64,000 bases of DNA from an uncultured Poribacteria bacterium (GCA_958296135.2 CATQHZ020000001.1:2272001-2336000), one strand, 5' to 3'. Shown: positions 4,401 to 11,752, numbered from the stretch's first letter. Made by a program: numbers and translations. The notes: generated from the sequence alone by a model not told the origin.

Positions 4401-4557
4401 GCGTCCAATTCTGTCGGCGTGCGCATGCTTCAAGGAGTGCTTGAAAGGCAGCGCGCACGGCGGTTTCGTGGGTGACACCGTGTTGTCGATACCTATCCAA
4501 CGCGGCGTAGTATTCCGTTATCGCTTTATGGTTCGGTTTGAGGTTAAGTGTTGGCAT
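1486..4557 (-). CDS. Restriction-modification fusion: N-terminal PD-(D/E)XK-like domain, N6-adenine methyltransferase and Type ISP-like C-terminal specificity domain (no helicase)
   Basis: GIVYTP, motif I IIDPFVGTGNF, motif IV IGNPPY, TRD motifs SLGVTTSRDAWVYNF, YRPF, FNYTYGILH..YRERY..DLK..LPHIP; N-terminal RLDG..GTWEAK. Start at MPTLNLKP. Confidence 0.85.
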   Translation of the reverse strand: MPTLNLKPNHKAITEYYAALDRYRQHGVTHETAVRAAFQALLEACARRQNWTLVCEYTRRVPGRNPIRLDGVLLDAHSLPRGTWEAKGVKGNLRADIQTKFDEGYPQENILFQTPERAILYQHGREVLDADITERETLITVLKAFFAYERENAAEWHAAVADFKTVVPELKQKATELIQEQLHTNARFRTAFADFYRLCQNAINPNLSEATVEEMLIQHLLTERTFRTVFANPDFTRRNIIARDIENVIDALTSKAFSRDAFLQNLDRFYRAIEREAATLVDFSQKQHFLNTVYEQFFQGDSAAVADTHGIVYTPQPIVDFMVKSVNHLLKTEFKRSLSDAGVHIIDPFVGTGNFIVRLMREIEPFKLEAKYRSELWCNEVLLLPYYIASLNIEHEFYSATGTYLPFEGISLVDTFDLAEARQLSLLTAENTARVEKQKASPMFVVIGNPPYNVGQMNANDNNKNRQYAAMDKRLQETYALDSKATSKSKLYDLYVKALRWASDRIGDEGIVAFVTNNGFLDAKAFDGMRKHLTEDFDALYLLDLGGNARRGKLVSDASVFGIQVGVSINLFVKNPAGRRALPGLTGRIFYFRTDDAWNKNKKFEFLAQAEHVGNVPWQTLQPDARHTWLTEGLHAEWTGFIPMGNKETKRAKGGTVETLFKTYSLGVTTSRDAWVYNFNLRPLTEKLTAMIDFYHAEAGRWKRRTVQDVDVDNFVNTDSTKIKWSDKLKSALKKGMPIEFAPENIRTTLYRPFTKSVLYFDRTLNERVGRFPSIFPTSDTERENQVIWLKTGQDWPMFALMTNKICDILPQSGSQCFPFYVYDADGTNRRENITDWALQNFRAQYGDESITKWDIFNYTYGILHQPEYRERYAADLKRDLPHIPYAEEFWAFADAGARLAEIHVNYEAQPQYPLKFISEPGVPLNLRVERMRLSKDKTQLKYNASLTLDGIPAKAWEYRLGNRSALEWVVAQYRVKCFDRSQIVNDPNDAERPRYLVELIGSVITVSLETVKVVEGLPSLNL

Positions 4558-4564
4558 ATTTTTC

Positions 4565-5338
4565 CTATCCATCGTTCGGGAGTTGTAGCGTGGCGCGGAC
4601 CTCGCGGCGCACTTCGCTGCAGAGGCGCAGTGCATCCTCAACTTTCTCCGCCGTTGTGAGATAACCGGGATAGCGCGCATCCACTGCATACGGGGCAAAC
4701 GCCGAAAAGGCGATTTGCCACGTACCCCACTCGGGTTGCGATGGCACAATCAGAGCCAACAATGCGTTCAAATCATGCGTCCGAGGCATGGGGATGTTCG
4801 CCTCCTGCAGCCACGCCTTCAGGTATTTTTCGATACACTGCTGCGCGTCAAAACAAATACGATTGTATAAGTCTGGATCCAATTCCCGCCGCGCCAATTG
4901 CAGCATCTTCCAATCTGCTTCCGCGGTCTGCACCCATTCCAATGTCAATGGGTTCATAACCCCCGTCTCCTCCCACACAGGCATCAAGGTTTTCTCGGCG
5001 AGCTCCAACGAAGGCCAGACTGCCTCCGTATCGTAAAGCACATCGCCTTTCTCGAGCACCTCGCGCAGAAACCAATCGTTGTGCAAAACGCGATACGCTA
5101 TGTCCGCCCATGAGCGAACGTGCAAATCGAGGCGGAAGCGACGCGGGATGCGCTCGCTTATCTCAGCCCGATGCCGAGCCGCCTCCGACTTCAGACATGC
5201 CATCACAACAAGCAAATCTACATCCGACGCTTCTGTCGGCATGCCATACGCGTAGGAGCCGAAGAGGATAACTCGGAGCGGCGAACATTCGCGCACGATG
5301 TCATCACAGATAGCTTGAATCTCTTTCGCGGAAATCAT
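4565..5338 (-). CDS. MNT (minimal nucleotidyltransferase)-HEPN fusion, copy 1
   Basis: ILFGSYAYG..SDVDLLVV (MNT) followed by AQQCIEKYLKA..PRTHDL..RYP (HEPN). Confidence 0.85.
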   Translation of the reverse strand: MISAKEIQAICDDIVRECSPLRVILFGSYAYGMPTEASDVDLLVVMACLKSEAARHRAEISERIPRRFRLDLHVRSWADIAYRVLHNDWFLREVLEKGDVLYDTEAVWPSLELAEKTLMPVWEETGVMNPLTLEWVQTAEADWKMLQLARRELDPDLYNRICFDAQQCIEKYLKAWLQEANIPMPRTHDLNALLALIVPSQPEWGTWQIAFSAFAPYAVDARYPGYLTTAEKVEDALRLCSEVRREVRATLQLPNDG

Positions 5339-5384
5339 TTTTTTCTTCCTATTCGGTTTGAGGGTGAGTGCCGGTATCTTTTTT

Positions 5385-6155
5385 CTATGCCTCGTTCGGG
5401 AGTTGCAACTCGGCGCGAATTGCTTGGCGCACTTCGCTGCAAAGGCGCACTGCATGTTCGGCATCCGCCGCCGTCGCAAAATATCCCTCATAACGCCCAT
5501 CTACGGCATGTTTCTCGAACATCGAAAAGCCCGTTTGCCACGCACCCCACTCAGGGCACGTCGGCACAATCAGAGCCAACAATGCGTTCAAATCATGCGT
5601 CCGAGGCACAGGAAGGTTCGCTTCTTGCAGCCACGCCTTCAGGTATTTTTCGATACACTGCTGCGCGTGGAAACAAATCGGATCACGGAGTGGCCTGGGA
5701 TTTTGTTGCGCCAATGTCAGCATCGTCCAATCATCCTCAGCCTTATGCACTCTCTCTAGCGTCAATGGGTTCATAGAACCTGTCTCCTTCCATATCGGGA
5801 CTAAGGCAGCCCCGGAGCGTTCCAACTTGGGAAACTCCCGCTCCGTATCGTAAAGCACATCGCCTTTTTCGAGCACCTCGCGCAGAAACCAATCGTTGTG
5901 CAAAACGCGATACGCTATGTCCGCCCGCGAGCGAACATGCAAATCGAGGCGGAAGCGACGCGGGATGCGCTCGCTTATCTCAGCCCGATGCCGAGCTGCC
6001 TCCGACTTCATCTCTGCCATCACAACAAGCAGATCGACATCCGACGCTTCTGTCGGCGTGCCATACGCGTAGGAACCGAAGAGGATAACTTGGAGCGGCG
6101 AACATTCGCGCACGATGTCATCACAGATAGCTTGAATCTCTTTCGCGGAAATCAT
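5385..6155 (-). CDS. MNT-HEPN fusion, copy 2
   Basis: Same motifs; tandem paralog. Confidence 0.85.
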   Translation of the reverse strand: MISAKEIQAICDDIVRECSPLQVILFGSYAYGTPTEASDVDLLVVMAEMKSEAARHRAEISERIPRRFRLDLHVRSRADIAYRVLHNDWFLREVLEKGDVLYDTEREFPKLERSGAALVPIWKETGSMNPLTLERVHKAEDDWTMLTLAQQNPRPLRDPICFHAQQCIEKYLKAWLQEANLPVPRTHDLNALLALIVPTCPEWGAWQTGFSMFEKHAVDGRYEGYFATAADAEHAVRLCSEVRQAIRAELQLPNEA

Positions 6156-6200
6156 TTTTTTCTTCCTATTCGGTTTGAGGGTGAGTGCCGGTATCTTTTT

Positions 6201-6974
6201 TTATCCCTCGTTCGGGAGTTGCAACTCGGCGCGAATTGCTTGGCGCACTTCGCCGCAAAGGCGCACTGCATGTTCGGCATCCGACTCCGTCGCGAAATAT
6301 CCCTCATAACGCCCATCTACGGCATATTTCTCGAACATCGAAAAGCCCGTTTGCCACGCGCGCCACTCAGGGCACCTCGGCACAATCAGAGCCAACAATG
6401 CGTTCAAATCATGCGTCCGAGGCACAGGAAGGTTCGCTTCTTGCAGCCACGCCTTCAGGTATTTTTCGATACACTGCTGCGCGTGGAAACAAATCGCATC
6501 GTGTATATCTGGTGCCGAAATCTGCTGCCCTGCCTTCATCATCAAATAATCAACTTCAGCTTTCCGCACTCTCTCCAATGTCAATGGGTTCATAACCCCC
6601 GTCTCCTCCCACACAGGCATCAAGGCTTTCTCGGCGAGTTCCAACGAAGGCCAGACTGCCTCCGTATCGTAAAGCACATCGCCTTTTTCGAGCACCTCGC
6701 GCAGAAACCAATCGTTATGCAAAACGCGATACGCTATGTCCGCCCGCGAGCGAACATGCAAATCGAGGTGGAAGCGACGCGGGATGCGCTCGCTTATCTC
6801 AGCCCGATGCCGAGCCGACTCCGACTTCATATCTGCCATCACAACAAGCAGATCGACATCCGACGCTTCTGTCGGCGTGCCATACGCGTAGGAGCCGAAG
6901 AGGATAACTTGGAGCGGTGAACATTCGCGCACGATGTCATCACAGATAGCTTGAATCTCTTTCGCGGAAATCAT
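6201..6974 (-). CDS. MNT-HEPN fusion, copy 3
   Basis: Same motifs; start MISAKE chosen by homology to copies 1 and 2. Confidence 0.85.
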   Translation of the reverse strand: MISAKEIQAICDDIVRECSPLQVILFGSYAYGTPTEASDVDLLVVMADMKSESARHRAEISERIPRRFHLDLHVRSRADIAYRVLHNDWFLREVLEKGDVLYDTEAVWPSLELAEKALMPVWEETGVMNPLTLERVRKAEVDYLMMKAGQQISAPDIHDAICFHAQQCIEKYLKAWLQEANLPVPRTHDLNALLALIVPRCPEWRAWQTGFSMFEKYAVDGRYEGYFATESDAEHAVRLCGEVRQAIRAELQLPNEG

Positions 6975-7069
6975 GAAGTTATACCTGTTCCCCGAAGTCT
7001 CAACATATCGAGATAAGTCGAGACTTCTAAGTTCCTGCTTCATCACTTACCGCCTCCGAAACGCACCTG

Positions 7070-7447
7070 CCGATTTTGACGTAGGCATGCTTGGTCGGCG
7101 ATCGTGCAGTGCTGTTTGCGAAAGCCAAACAGCACATCTTCGGCGTTCGGTAGTCCCGAACGCCTACACGATCGCCGGCGCGAAAGCCAAGCAGGTTTCC
7201 GAAGATGTCTTATTCTGTAAACAGAATAAGACTGCGTCAAAATCGGAGAAATGCGAATACGACGAGGTCTTACGCGAGCGCCACAGGCGTTTTGCGTCTC
7301 GGTCAAACCAGCCGCGACGTTTTCTTTGTAGTTCTAGATGCTGCAGCGAGACAATCCTTTCTCCGATTTTTGCGCAGTGTCATTTGCGAAAGCCAAATGA
7401 CACATCTTCGGTTGTTTGTTATTACAAACAACCTACGCAAAAATCGG
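7070..7447. ncRNA. Three copies of an unknown three-way-junction structured motif (RNA or ssDNA)
   Basis: Stem-TA-GG..CC-GAAGAT-G..C-TG-stem at 7070-7246 (+), 7096-7177 (-, nested) and 7363-7447 (-); stems differ in sequence but stay paired. Confidence 0.6.
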
Positions 7448-7724
7448 CAGGGAATCGCGGCGGTCTTACAGCCCCTCCACCGTCAGCGGTGCATACGCAC
7501 TGCCAACTATTAATCCGCTTATCACGGGGGGTTAGGTTATTTAAGCATGCCTCTTGACATCGTGCAGTAGGAAACGCTCCTCACGCTCCGTTCGCCATCC
7601 TCTCACCTGAGAGATAAAACTACTTAAATCAGATATGTTACGAATTAACGAGACTTACCGAGAATTCAATCGAAATACTCGGATTTTCGGGCTCTAGCAC
7701 TCTCCTCCTTTGCTGATTTTAAAA

Positions 7725-7754
7725 AGTATAGCATGAAAACGTAATGAATGTCAA
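7725..7754 (-). promoter_or_regulatory. Putative sigma70 promoter toward the structured leader and MNT-HEPN array
   Basis: TTGACA-18 bp-TATACT with extended TG. Confidence 0.55.
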
Positions 7755-7836
7755 ATTTTCCCAAGACTATCTAGTTTCCCAATTCAAATCTGTTTGGCAA
7801 AACAAAAATGTTCCTCTGCGGTTTTGGAAAAACGTG

Positions 7837-7866: not shown

Positions 7867-7984
7867 ATATACATGGATGGGACGAACGCAAATTCCCCAA
7901 ACGCCCGTTCGGTAGGCGCGCTTTGAAAGCGCGCCCACGGGGTTTGTTCGGAGTCAAACCGCAATGGAAAAAAATAGGTGAATT

Positions 7985-10900
7985 ATGGAAACACATTCTC
8001 AACGGATAACATATCTCAAAAACCGACTGAAGGAACGCATCCTTGTGCTTGACGGCGCGATGGGCTCGCTGCTGCAGACGTATCGGCTCGCCGAGGCAGA
8101 TTTTCGCGGAGACCGGTTCGCTGAGCATCCGAGTGAACTCAAAGGCTACAATGATTTACTCTCTCTCACGCAGCCGCACATCGTGCGCGAAATTCACAGC
8201 GGCTACTGCCAAGCCGGCTCGGACATCATCTCTACGAATACCTTCACAAGCACCGCTGTCTCTATGGCAGATTACCAATTGCAGGAGCTCGCGTATCAGG
8301 TTAATTCTGCCGCCGCGCGTATCGCACGTGAAGTCGCGGATAAGTGGACATCGCCGGAAAAACCGCGCTTCGTCGCGGGAAGCATGGGGCCCACCAACCG
8401 CAGCTGCTCCATCTCGCCGAATGTGAACGACCCGGGGTATCGGAACGTCACCTTCGCGCAACTCGTCGATGCCTACACCACACAGGCGGAGGGACTCATC
8501 GATGGCGGCGCAGATTTGTTGCTCATAGAGACTGTGATGGATACGCTCAATTGTAAAGCCGCGCTCTACGCAATTCAGACACTCGCTGAAACGCAAGGGA
8601 TTGACATCCCTATCATCGTCTCTTCGGATAGAAGCGGCGGCGGGGGTAGGAATCTGTCTGGACAAACGGTGGAAGCGTTTTGGAATTCAATCCGACACAC
8701 GCGTCGCGACCGGGAGGGCGCGCCTACCGAGGGCGCTGCAAACCTCCTCGCTGTCGGCCTAAACTGTGGGTTCGGTGCGGCGCAGATTCGGCCGTATCTT
8801 GCCGAAATGGCAAGACTTGCAGACATCCCGGTAATCTGCTATCCGAACGCCGGCCTGCCGAATGAACTCGGGCACTATACGCAAACGCCGGCCGAAATGG
8901 GGGAGGCACTCCACGATTTCGCGCAAAACGGATTCCTCAATATCGTCGGCGGGTGTTGCGGGACGCAGCCGGCGCATATCGCAGCTATCGTCAAAATTGC
9001 CGCCGAGCACCCGCCGCGCCAACCGATGCCGCAGCCTCGCGCCTGCAGGCTGAGCGGCCTAGAGGCGTTTAACATCACCCCCGATTCCCTCTTTGTGAAC
9101 GTCGGCGAACGGACAAACGTGACAGGTTCGCGCCGATTTGCAACACTCATCAAAAAAGGCAATTACGAAAAGGCACTGGAAGTTGCACGGGACCAGGTTG
9201 AAAACGGCGCGCAACTCATCGACATTAACATGGACGCGGGCATGTTAGATGCGAAGGCGGCGATGGTGAAGTTCCTCAACCTCATCGCCGCGGAACCGGA
9301 TATTAGCCGCGTGCCTATCATGCTTGATTCCAGTCGGTGGGAGGTACTCGAGGCGGGGCTCGCGTGCATTCAGGGGAAAGGCGTTGTCAACTCCATCAGT
9401 TTAAAGGAAGGCGAAGCCGATTTCTTGGAGAAAGCACGCCAGATTCGCCGATACGGTGCCGCTGTCATCGTCATGGCATTTGACGAAGAAGGACAAGCCG
9501 AAACTTATGAACGGAAGGTGACACTCTGCCAAAGGGCGTATCAACTTTTGACAGAAACGGTTGGGTTTCCACCGGAGGACATCATCTTCGATGCGAACAT
9601 CTTCGCCGTCGCCACCGGGATTGAAGCACACAACGACTACGCGAAGGCGTTTATTGACGCATGCCGCGAGATTAAAGCCACCTGTCCGCACGCACTCGTC
9701 AGCGGGGGCGTGAGCAATATCTCCTTCGCCTTCCGCGGCAACAACACCGTGCGAGAGGCGATGCACGCCGCTTTTCTGTATCATGCCATCGGCGCAGGGA
9801 TGGACATGGGCATCGTTAACGCCGGGCAACTCGCTGTCTACGATGAACTGCCGAAAGCACTCCTGAAGGCAGTCGAGGACGTCCTGCTCAACCGCCGTTC
9901 AGATGCAACCGACCGGCTCGTCTCCCGCGCCGAGACACTGGCTGCCGTAGGCACTGTTTCCAATCGCGCATCGAAACAAAAAGAATGGCGGCAACTCTCT
10001 GTCGAAGAAAGACTCCGGCACGCACTCGTGGAAGGCATCGTGGAATTCATTGTGGCCGACACAGAAGAAGCCCGGCAGAAATACGAACGTCCAATCCATA
10101 TCATCGAAGGCCCTTTGATGGATGGCATGAATCGGGTGGGTGAATTGTTCGGCGCGGGCAAAATGTTCCTGCCGCAAGTCGTTAAAAGCGCACGGGTCAT
10201 GAAAAAGTCCGTGGCGCACCTCATCCCGTTCATCGAGAAAGCCGCCGAGGGCGCGCAGGCCAAACGCCCCAAAATCGTCATGGCGACTGTCAAAGGCGAC
10301 GTGCATGACATCGGCAAAAATATCGTCGGTGTCGTGCTTGGATGCAATAACTACGATGTGCTCGACCTGGGTGTGATGGTGCCGGCGGAGGAGATTCTGG
10401 AAACGGCGCGGAAAGAGAACGCCGACATGATTGGGCTCAGCGGCCTGATTACGCCATCGTTAGACGAAATGGTGCATGTTGCATCCGAGATGGAGCGGCA
10501 AGGATTCCGCATCCCGCTACTCATCGGCGGCGCGACTACCTCAAAGGTGCATACCGCAGCCCAAATTGAACCTGTTTATCAAGGCGCGACAGTGCATGTC
10601 AAAGATGCTTCGCGGAGTGTGGGAGTGGTAAGCAAACTGCTGAGCCGGGACAAACAAGCTCAGTTCATAGCCGAGACGCACGCCGAATATGAAAAGATTC
10701 GGGAACGCCACGCCAAAAATCGGCAACAGACGAATCTGCTCGCCTTCTCGGTAGCGCAACAACGGAAATTTACACCGGATTGGAAGAATTATCAACCGCC
10801 GGCGCCGGAACTTAAGGGCCCCAAACGCTTTAATGATTATCCGTTGGAGGAATTGGTTGACTATATTGACTGGACCCCCTTCTTCGCAACGTGGGGGCTC

Positions 10901-11752
10901 CGCGGCAAATTCCCCAATCTGATGCGTCACCCAAATATCGGCGAGGAGGCGAACAAACTCTTTAAAGATGCAAACGCACTGCTCGCGCGCATCATTGAAG
11001 AAAAGCGGTTGCGTGCAAACGCTGTCGTCGGAATCTTCCTCGCTAACACCGTCGGGGAAGATACCCACATCTATGTACCGAAGTCTAGTCAACCGCGAAG
11101 GACTGCTCCTTCACTCTTCCTAAAACCCGTAAGGCAGAGAACAGTGACACTTCATCACCTGCGCCAACAGACAGAGCAACCGTTCGGCAGACCGAATCTG
11201 AGTCTCGCCGATTTCATCGCACCCAAGAAAACCGGGGTCGACGATTATATCGGGGCGTTTGCCGTGACGACCGGCATTGGCGTGGCAGAACTCTGCGCCG
11301 AATTCGAGAGACAGCACGACGATTACAACAGCATCATGACAAAAGCGTTGGCTGACCGGCTCGCTGAGGCGTTCGCGGAACGAATGCATCAACGCGTCCG
11401 CACAGAACTCTGGGGATACGCGGCAGACGAAAAGTTTGACGCAGACGCGCTCATCGCCGAAAAATACAGCGGCATCCGGCCCGCGCCGGGCTACCCGGCT
11501 TGTCCTGAGCATACCGCAAAACGGACGATATTCGATATCCTGAACGTCGAAGCAAACACCAGCATCACGTTAACCGAGAATCTCGCAATGGCCCCGGCGG
11601 CATCTGTCTGTGGATGGTATTATTCGCACCCAGAATCACGGTATTTCAGCATCGGCAGAATCGGGGAAGACCAGGTGGCAGACTACGCGGAAAGAAGCGG
11701 CATCGATATGGAGACTGCGCGCCGCAGACTGAAACCGCTGCTGCACCCGTAG
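7985..11752 (+). CDS. metH: Cobalamin-dependent methionine synthase
   Basis: [32 protein letters not shown] (B12-binding) and [12 protein letters not shown] motifs; 1255 aa. Confidence 0.97.

Follow-up and report, generated by a model that had tools for sequence, protein, structure and literature searches.

A self-nesting three-way-junction repeat of a Poribacteria genome is probably REP-like mobile DNA and most likely not a new ribozyme

Three copies of a three-way-junction motif lie within some 400 nt of a 64,000-nt stretch of DNA from an uncultured Poribacteria bacterium (GCA_958296135.2, CATQHZ020000001.1:2272001-2336000; the whole stretch is referred to below as the window). The motif is most likely not a new ribozyme. 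It is probably a non-autonomous mobile DNA of ~88 nt, built as a head-to-head REP-like dimer, for which a Y1 HUH enzyme of the RAYT/IS200 type would provide transposition in trans through a single-stranded DNA form. The original prediction had offered two readings, a new ribozyme or other non-coding RNA on the one hand and an HUH/RAYT-type single-stranded DNA element able to insert into itself on the other, and the second is the better one. Its mobility and self-insertion are borne out by empty sites, and the link between the element and a RAYT-type enzyme is one that we infer.

Results

Three copies in the window and their fold

Every arm predicted for the three copies, designated A, B and C, is present in the window (Table 1), and a repeat finder independently returns these arms as inverted repeats I4, I5, I7, I9, I12, I14, I15 and I17. 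The proposed architecture, P1-TA-P2-GAAGAT-P3-TG-P1', is likewise recovered by folding. Elements B (7096-7177) and C (7363-7447) form the three-way junction on both strands, with energies of -42.5 to -55.4 kcal/mol under RNA parameters (z -8.5 to -10.0) and of -30.4 to -35.8 kcal/mol under DNA parameters (z -9.25 to -9.78, both strands alike); under either set, none of 200 shuffles is as stable. The composite of A and B (7068-7247) folds as a junction nested in a junction (-63 kcal/mol, z -11.67). Element B sits in inverted orientation inside the P2 loop of element A, a nesting foreseen in the original prediction and supported both by the fold and by uninterrupted A-type copies. For copy A the predicted P1 and P3 arms stand, while P2 is imperfect in the window, where its 3' arm ends in ...CAGGTTTCC; a paralogue at genome position 825060 has the perfect arm.

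Table 1. Elements, host and neighboring features, in window coordinates unless marked as genome positions. Stems are given in plus-strand coordinates.
Feature	Position	Strand	Basis or details
Fused MNT-HEPN gene, last of a tandem array	6201..7046	-	ORF from GTG; Pfam NTP_transf_2 + HEPN
Host of A and C, tnpB-less IS605-family (TnpB) derivative	6985..7712	-	Right end 6985, left end ~7712
Element A, 180 nt	7068..7247	+	Nested fold; limits set by a paralogous empty site (genome 2122568/2122567)
A, 5' part			TG; P1 7070-7081; TA; P2 5' arm 7084-7093; then element B
A, after B			Host loop CGAAAGC 7181-7187; imperfect P2 3' arm 7188-7200; core GAAGAT 7201-7206
A, 3' part			P3 7207-7217/7222-7232; TG; P1' 7235-7246; A
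Element B, 87 nt	7094..7180	-	R1 match 83.6 bits; folds; uninterrupted A-type copies are the empty site
B, stems			P1 7096-7106/7167-7177; P3 7109-7118/7126-7135; P2 7142-7150/7156-7164
Element C, 88 nt	7362..7449	-	R1 match 99.8 bits; folds; empty sites at genome 2122454/2122453 and 3032158/3032157
C, stems			P1 7363-7374/7436-7447; P3 7377-7386/7394-7403; P2 7410-7419/7424-7433
Abundant palindromic REP copy, GTAGG-tagged, ~200 copies in genome	7912..7935		
metH, B12-dependent methionine synthase	7985..11752	+	Pfam; orthologue in G002; synteny anchor

Copy number, covariation and alleles

The genome scanned comprises 5.19 Mb in four contigs, including a chromosome of 5.0 Mb. A strict scan for the order P1-2nt-hairpin-GAAGAT-hairpin-2nt-P1' returns 23 matches, all with the same 2-nt junction offsets, and a covariance model of the family (R1) places 40 full-length copies in the genome, so that the further copies sought following the original prediction do exist, and they covary. 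In addition, R1 finds two interrupted A-type copies, one more interrupted host and four half-elements, and a fuzzy half-site search aimed at the termini of a possible coding parent, whose loose thresholds otherwise return noise, adds two more interrupted hosts at genome 3579464 and 2785406. A structure-only scan of the chromosome ignores sequence and requires a pair of perfect hairpins, each 8 bp or longer and separated by 3-10 nt, within an outer stem that is perfect over 7 bp or more. From 2672 hairpins it yields 25 three-way junctions, every one of which is a family member. The three-way-junction pattern is far beyond chance in this genome. No family element is found on contig C2, a sequence of 143,886 nt that differs from the chromosome in G+C content (36.8% against 54.4%) and could be a plasmid or a binning contaminant.

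The stem covariation is real. In an alignment of 19 copies, 97.7% of the stem cells are paired against 72.5% in shuffles, none of 500 shuffles reaching the observed value; both sides change in 26 of the 32 pairs, and slid-partner controls pair at 33-43%. The claim that the stems differ and yet remain paired is thereby upheld. Across 31 distinct copies, the stems hold 926 Watson-Crick pairs, 2 G-T pairs, 26 other mismatches and 4 gaps, a count for which the seed was picked with a Watson-Crick filter and the model search itself would not exclude wobble pairs. The hairpin stems are hypervariable, the same 31 copies carrying 24 P2 and 21 P3 alleles; of the outer stem, P1, they carry 15. One P3 allele is found with five P1/P2 combinations, both P1 types among them, and because identical modules of this kind recur in otherwise differing copies, the copies are mosaics. 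A four-combination test for reassortment finds no allele pair with all four combinations.

The junction preceding P2 reads G-TA-G in 27 of the 31 distinct copies (GA in two, TT and AG in one each). On the opposite strand, the tag before P3 is GCAG in 27 copies, corresponding to the TG junction, and of the G/T-TAG type in the other four. The resemblance of the GTAGG junction to the genome's REP tag, noted in the original prediction, holds: the REP families of this genome carry the same GTAGG. The loop types of P2 and P3 are mutually reverse complementary (CGAAAGC/GCTTTCG, CGAAGGTTTC/GAAACCTTCG and AATA/TATT). Since P2 and P3 thus share their loop types in opposite orientation, each half of the element, read on its own strand, consists of a 12-nt arm, G(T/C)AG and a hairpin. 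The GCGAAAGC loop, which contains a GAAA tetraloop, occurs once per copy in 15 of the 31 copies and lies on the tag-bearing strand. It is on the model strand where it belongs to P2 (seven copies) and on the complementary one where it belongs to P3 (eight copies). It fits the composition GCGNNAGC, which is that given in PMC13037366 for an extraordinarily stable mini-hairpin DNA motif.

Empty sites, boundaries and targets

Comparison of filled and empty paralogous sites establishes the element as an insertion. The host paralogue at genome 2122193-2122650 lacks exactly 7068-7247 (A with B) and 7362-7449 (C), and uninterrupted A-type copies (e.g. genome 3579019) represent the empty site for B. These sites show that the whole dimer moves as a single unit. 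Thirteen such comparisons were attempted and ten resolved, the aligner leaving 2785432, 3579364 and 1432559 unresolved. None of the ten resolved insertions has a target duplication. The insert starts with TG in seven and ends with A in six; the base preceding it is C in seven, the target being C^G in five cases and C^A in two. The four bases before the insert vary (TTGC, CACC, TCCC, TGTC, TCGC, CCGC and CATC), and no strict target consensus is apparent past the preceding C in these ten insertions. The left boundary is a C|T step in seven of ten events, 14 nt upstream of the tagged P2. At the right boundary no CT or CA step is found on the same strand, and a C|T step on the opposite strand is present in only five of ten. 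Three of the ten have deviant termini: element B (CG...C), the copy at genome 945091 (GT...C) and one that is ambiguous by one base.

The same site can be used more than once. Three TnpB insertion sequences (IS) carry elements identical over 90 of 90 positions at the same point (catc^gata), the adjoining 250 nt being 86-94% identical, and these three IS copies are no closer to one another than to empty IS copies. Identical elements at an identical site in diverged IS copies therefore indicate repeated site-specific insertion or homogenization, not one old event.

Self-insertion is likewise recurrent. At genome 2785432 an element lies in a P2 loop at TTGC^GAAAGCC, as read by eye, and those at genome 945091 and 3276189 occupy the same point of the P1 arm in different hosts. 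A simple reason offers itself for the nesting, because the P2 loop of the element contains C^GAAA, the same target into which A and C were inserted. Four TnpB-2 copies are preceded, at genome 1930892-1931177 and in its three paralogues, by a full element and then by the 3' half of a second one; both seem to lie within a decayed outer element, which would imply several rounds of nesting.

Candidate excision joints in short DNA-read unitigs (four runs of one sample) were rejected, as they proved to be other family alleles and paralogous copies. Orientation shows no clear bias relative to GC skew in an informal tally of ~14 copies in unique DNA, on a chromosome whose skew is irregular. The cumulative skew has its maximum at ~1.6 Mb, its minimum at ~4.9 Mb and a bump at 2.75-3.25 Mb, which suggests unequal replichores, rearrangements or an assembly problem.

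Hosts and the surrounding locus

The host of A and C measures ~460 nt without its inserts and is present in seven copies in the genome. Its last ~150 nt (window 6981-7066 and 7248-7312) share homology with the TnpB-2 IS at the right end of the latter, and by eye its left end resembles the IS left end. The stretch of ~740 nt before the MNT-HEPN array, which had been described as non-coding DNA downstream of a promoter, does lie there, and is itself this tnpB-less IS605-family derivative, absent from the orthologous site of G002, a genome of the same genus. In G002 the MNT-HEPN gene and metH are syntenic, 32 nt replace window 6976-7725, and 2 nt replace window 7873-7957, the segment that holds the abundant REP copy. 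What looked like a non-coding region upstream of the MNT-HEPN array is thus a recent pile-up of mobile elements and not a regulatory region. As a separate observation, segment 7874-7956 is an insertion relative to G002, which provides an orthologous empty site for an ordinary REP. The last MNT-HEPN gene has a likely ATG start at 6975, as read by eye, and window 4532-6975 (minus strand) holds three tandem MNT-HEPN paralogues that are 85-91% identical; other such arrays occur elsewhere in the genome, e.g. at 3179399-3181748.

Mobile elements also host the family outside this locus. Pfam and NCBIfam searches reveal 32 TnpB-like loci in the genome; these fall into three or more IS groups, and identity between copies reaches ~95%. 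Of the 40 elements, 11 are located upstream of a tnpB ORF at a distance of no more than 400 nt, and these 11 are spread over three IS groups. Another host is a GTAG-tagged REPIN-like repeat of ~108 nt, which numbers over 100 copies and is also found beside the second RAYT gene. One TnpB-1 locus (L051 1200-2433; chromosome 1928699-1929932) is split into two overlapping frames, with ORFs of 305 and 174 aa, and is probably frameshifted.

Distribution

The family is restricted to one sponge-symbiont lineage, as far as the searched collections show. The assignment of its bearer to Candidatus Poribacteria agrees with the MetH sequence, which shares 78% identity with MetH of a Poribacteria MAG. Among 40 relatives, R1 matches only G001, a genome of the same genus, at one place and with new, fully compensated stems; this search scored ~103 first-look candidates per genome and could miss weak or divergent relatives. 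A pattern of the invariant core, run over 176 genomes of the phylum, gives 34 matches in the element's own genome and one in G001. Eight other genomes have a single match, with no hairpin arms in the seven listed (that of G162 excluded), and the reversed control gives a similar rate, 13 matches in 12 genomes. A lone GTDB-wide match to the commonest P1 type, in a Bacteroidetes MAG, was dismissed as chance, having neither hairpins nor an R1 match, and none of seven pattern matches in JGI metagenome contigs fits R1 at E up to 1. The flanks of the G001 copy have no match in the genome studied here, and a cross-genome empty site for it was accordingly not found. Judged by the collections searched, then, the family is young and limited to a single genus.

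RAYT-like genes

The genome encodes two RAYT-like Y1 HUH proteins. RAYT-1, encoded at chromosome 3734421-3734834 on the minus strand, scores 125 bits on NF047646 (cut-off 80), and its alignment to the Escherichia coli structure 4ER8 places HVH opposite HMH and YCYENPV opposite YIYINPV; HVH is presumably the catalytic HUH motif and YCYENPV the segment of the catalytic tyrosine. RAYT-2 scores 57 bits, below the cut-off, and has no PDB match; on our own reading, its translation contains an HFH motif. The HUH genes that the original prediction suggested looking for are therefore present in the genome, although the element does not flank them: R1 matches are absent from the flanks of both, which hold other GTAG-tagged repeat families. 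The gene of the atypical RAYT-2 (chromosome 4791152-4791556, minus strand; in locus L002, 4789655-4792897) lies between arrays of two different GTAG-tagged repeat families. Genome-wide there are 313 sites with GTAGG plus a hairpin, ~200 of which belong to one palindromic REP family.

A canonical IS200-type TnpA was not found in the genome, where the two RAYT-like genes are the only Y1 genes. With 32 TnpB loci, near-identical copies among them and no IS200-type TnpA, some trans-acting enzyme is therefore either unaccounted for or a RAYT. As for the relatives, G002 has a RAYT-1 orthologue and lacks the element; no RAYT was detected in G001, the bearer of one element, whose assembly is 86% complete.

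Discussion

A model for transposition in trans

As described in PMC8266576, RAYT enzymes bind a GTAG tag together with a hairpin on single-stranded DNA and cleave on each flank of the hairpin, at a CT dinucleotide or, in one of the systems, at CA; the GTAG acts as a guide like that of IS608. In the reading that we regard as probable, the 12-nt arms of the element would pair, and single-stranded DNA of either strand would fold into the three-way junction. A Y1 HUH transposase of the RAYT/IS200 type would then mobilize this folded strand in trans, reading the tag plus hairpin and cutting at the left boundary, within its C|T step, and the outer stem (P1) would bring the two element ends together. 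The enzyme would read no more than the shape of the hairpins and the bases of the junction; the stems could therefore drift freely as long as they stay Watson-Crick, which would produce the covariation.

Several observations sit less well with a RAYT. Neither RAYT gene is flanked by the element, and gene and element do not coincide in G001 and G002. The right boundary lacks a same-strand CT or CA, three of ten termini are deviant, and the target is loose. The informal tally reveals no clear orientation bias, and a terminal inverted repeat of 12 bp is also MITE-like.

Alternative explanations

A more tentative possibility is that the element represents a distinct class of single-stranded DNA transposon substrate, in which the invariant junction itself (the 12-bp stem with TA, GAAGAT and TG) is recognized and the element behaves as a hyperparasite that homes to positions after a C, often in hairpin loops. 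Its targets would be the ends of IS605/TnpB elements, REPIN-like repeats and its own P2 loop with C^GAAA, and the enzyme serving it may be RAYT-2, the atypical one of the two Y1 proteins.

It is unlikely, though worth weighing against the RAYT model, that another class of enzyme moves the element, be it a DEDD transposase of the IS110/IS1111 type, a site-specific recombinase or a vanished IS200-type TnpA serving the tnpB-only elements. The absence of target duplication in ten of ten events, the insertions into REP-like or hairpin elements, the lack of element copies beside the RAYT genes and the 32 TnpB loci without an IS200-type TnpA would all suit such an enzyme, but an invariant GTAG that immediately precedes a hairpin, as in the element, is the signature of RAYTs (PMC8266576).

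Still more doubtful is the suggestion that the copies arrived as mobile DNA and were then kept for the host's benefit, as bidirectional terminators, mRNA stabilizers or protein-binding DNA, with the core as the site of a host factor. Host roles of REPs are discussed in PMC3733652, and junction bases that stay invariant as the stems drift are what this explanation would lead one to expect. Most copies, however, lie inside other selfish elements and not at gene ends; the family numbers only ~40 copies in one lineage, and the element is missing from the sister species at the single orthologous site examined.

The idea of a structured RNA, a self-cleaving ribozyme or other non-coding RNA whose junction is selected at the RNA level, draws on the strong RNA fold, the invariant junction with covarying stems and the GAAA tetraloop within the GCGAAAGC loop of 15 of the 31 copies. 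Just as no hammerhead, twister, pistol, attC or riboswitch core had been recognized by inspection, Rfam 15, with its ribozymes and the motifs reported from Poribacteria, gives no match at gathering thresholds over the whole 64-kb window; at E up to 10, across 6900-7800, the best score is that of mir-242_2 (23.4 bits against a gathering threshold of 56, and in a bacterium), followed only by sub-threshold models of eukaryotic miRNAs, snoRNAs and lncRNAs. G-U-type cells number 2 of 954, against 26 other mismatches. Hairpins of the same type are found in either orientation within a single element, entire copies occur in both orientations and one inside another, and both strands fold equally. The near-absence of wobble pairs, the equal folding of the strands, the range of a single genus and the filled and empty site pairs, which record insertion of DNA, therefore speak for mobile DNA and not for a conserved RNA, and the ribozyme or non-coding RNA first proposed is highly improbable.

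Significance

RAYT-driven transposition has been deduced mainly from genome patterns and in vitro cleavage. The spread of REPs is still described as poorly understood (PMC8266576). With its base-exact boundaries, repeatedly hit sites, self-nesting and an outer stem that juxtaposes its ends, the element offers a compact and testable substrate for a Y1 HUH enzyme. If the hyperparasite interpretation were true, this would be the first natural system with clean filled and empty sites for reconstituting the RAYT-type transposition of a REP dimer. The family also carries a caution: covariation that is perfect around an invariant junction, commonly taken as the mark of a functional RNA, can also come from mobile DNA whose hairpins have to fold as single strands, and it is the near-absence of G-T pairs that separates mobile DNA from functional RNA here.

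Comparison with known systems

Some structured DNA and RNA systems seem improbable at first sight. By eye, the GTTRRRY-type core of integron attC sites is not seen in the copies; folded sites of the Xer/dif type would give a single target and not dispersed copies; and for a retron or another RT-linked RNA no linked gene was seen. The element resembles three-way-junction ribozymes such as hammerhead and twister-sister in having three helices around a small conserved junction. To our knowledge, its junction strands (UA, GAAGAU and UG) match no ribozyme family core in Rfam.

Among mobile DNAs, classical MITEs are similar in small size, terminal inverted repeats, lack of coding capacity, dispersal and nested insertions. 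Unlike these elements, which depend on DDE transposases, the present family makes no target-site duplication in ten of ten events, and in passing we noticed no parent IS that shares its inverted repeats. The IS200/IS605 family and the PATEs share with the element the absence of target duplication and precise presence or absence. They insert directly after a preferred base, and the element follows a C in seven of ten events, the four preceding bases being variable. A further likeness is the subterminal hairpin close to either end, with the cleavage site about a dozen bases farther out, and the element is closely associated with TnpB elements of the IS605 family. Their ends, however, are not inverted repeats, whereas those of the element pair over 12 bp. 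As to a PATE-like parent, three TnpB IS groups were examined, TnpB-1 and TnpB-2 among them, and their termini differ from those of the element.

In the main texts of the literature searched, a three-way junction was not found joined to REPIN, RAYT, IS605 or miniature inverted-repeat elements, and nothing on such elements surfaced in the literature on Poribacteria repeats. We did not find described an invariant junction with hypervariable hairpins, base-exact empty sites, repeated use of a site or self-nesting.

The closest comparison is with REPs and REPINs, from which the element differs in several respects. Its two hairpins are not inverted copies of each other and, in contrast to the units of a REPIN, do not pair together, so that it forms a three-way junction and not one long hairpin; its second tag is GCAG. 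The copy number is low (~40), and no RAYT gene is flanked by the element. It conserves an outer stem of 12 bp and a 6-nt core, GAAGAT, while its hairpin stems are hypervariable, and it displays clean empty sites and nested self-insertion. The likeness lies in the short non-coding palindromic units with a 5' GTAG tag, paired head to head. In the element, too, an unpaired GTAG tag stands at the 5' foot of the hairpin, and the tags face outwards. Confinement to one lineage is a further common trait, and RAYT genes and other GTAGG-tagged REP families reside in the same genome. The C|T found at the left boundary in seven of ten events is the dinucleotide that RAYTs cleave according to PMC8266576. 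Finally, PMC3733652 describes REP dimers and heterodimers as well as dimers that lie within longer palindromes, and reports REP dimers inside an outer palindrome from Anabaena variabilis and Halothiobacillus neapolitanus.
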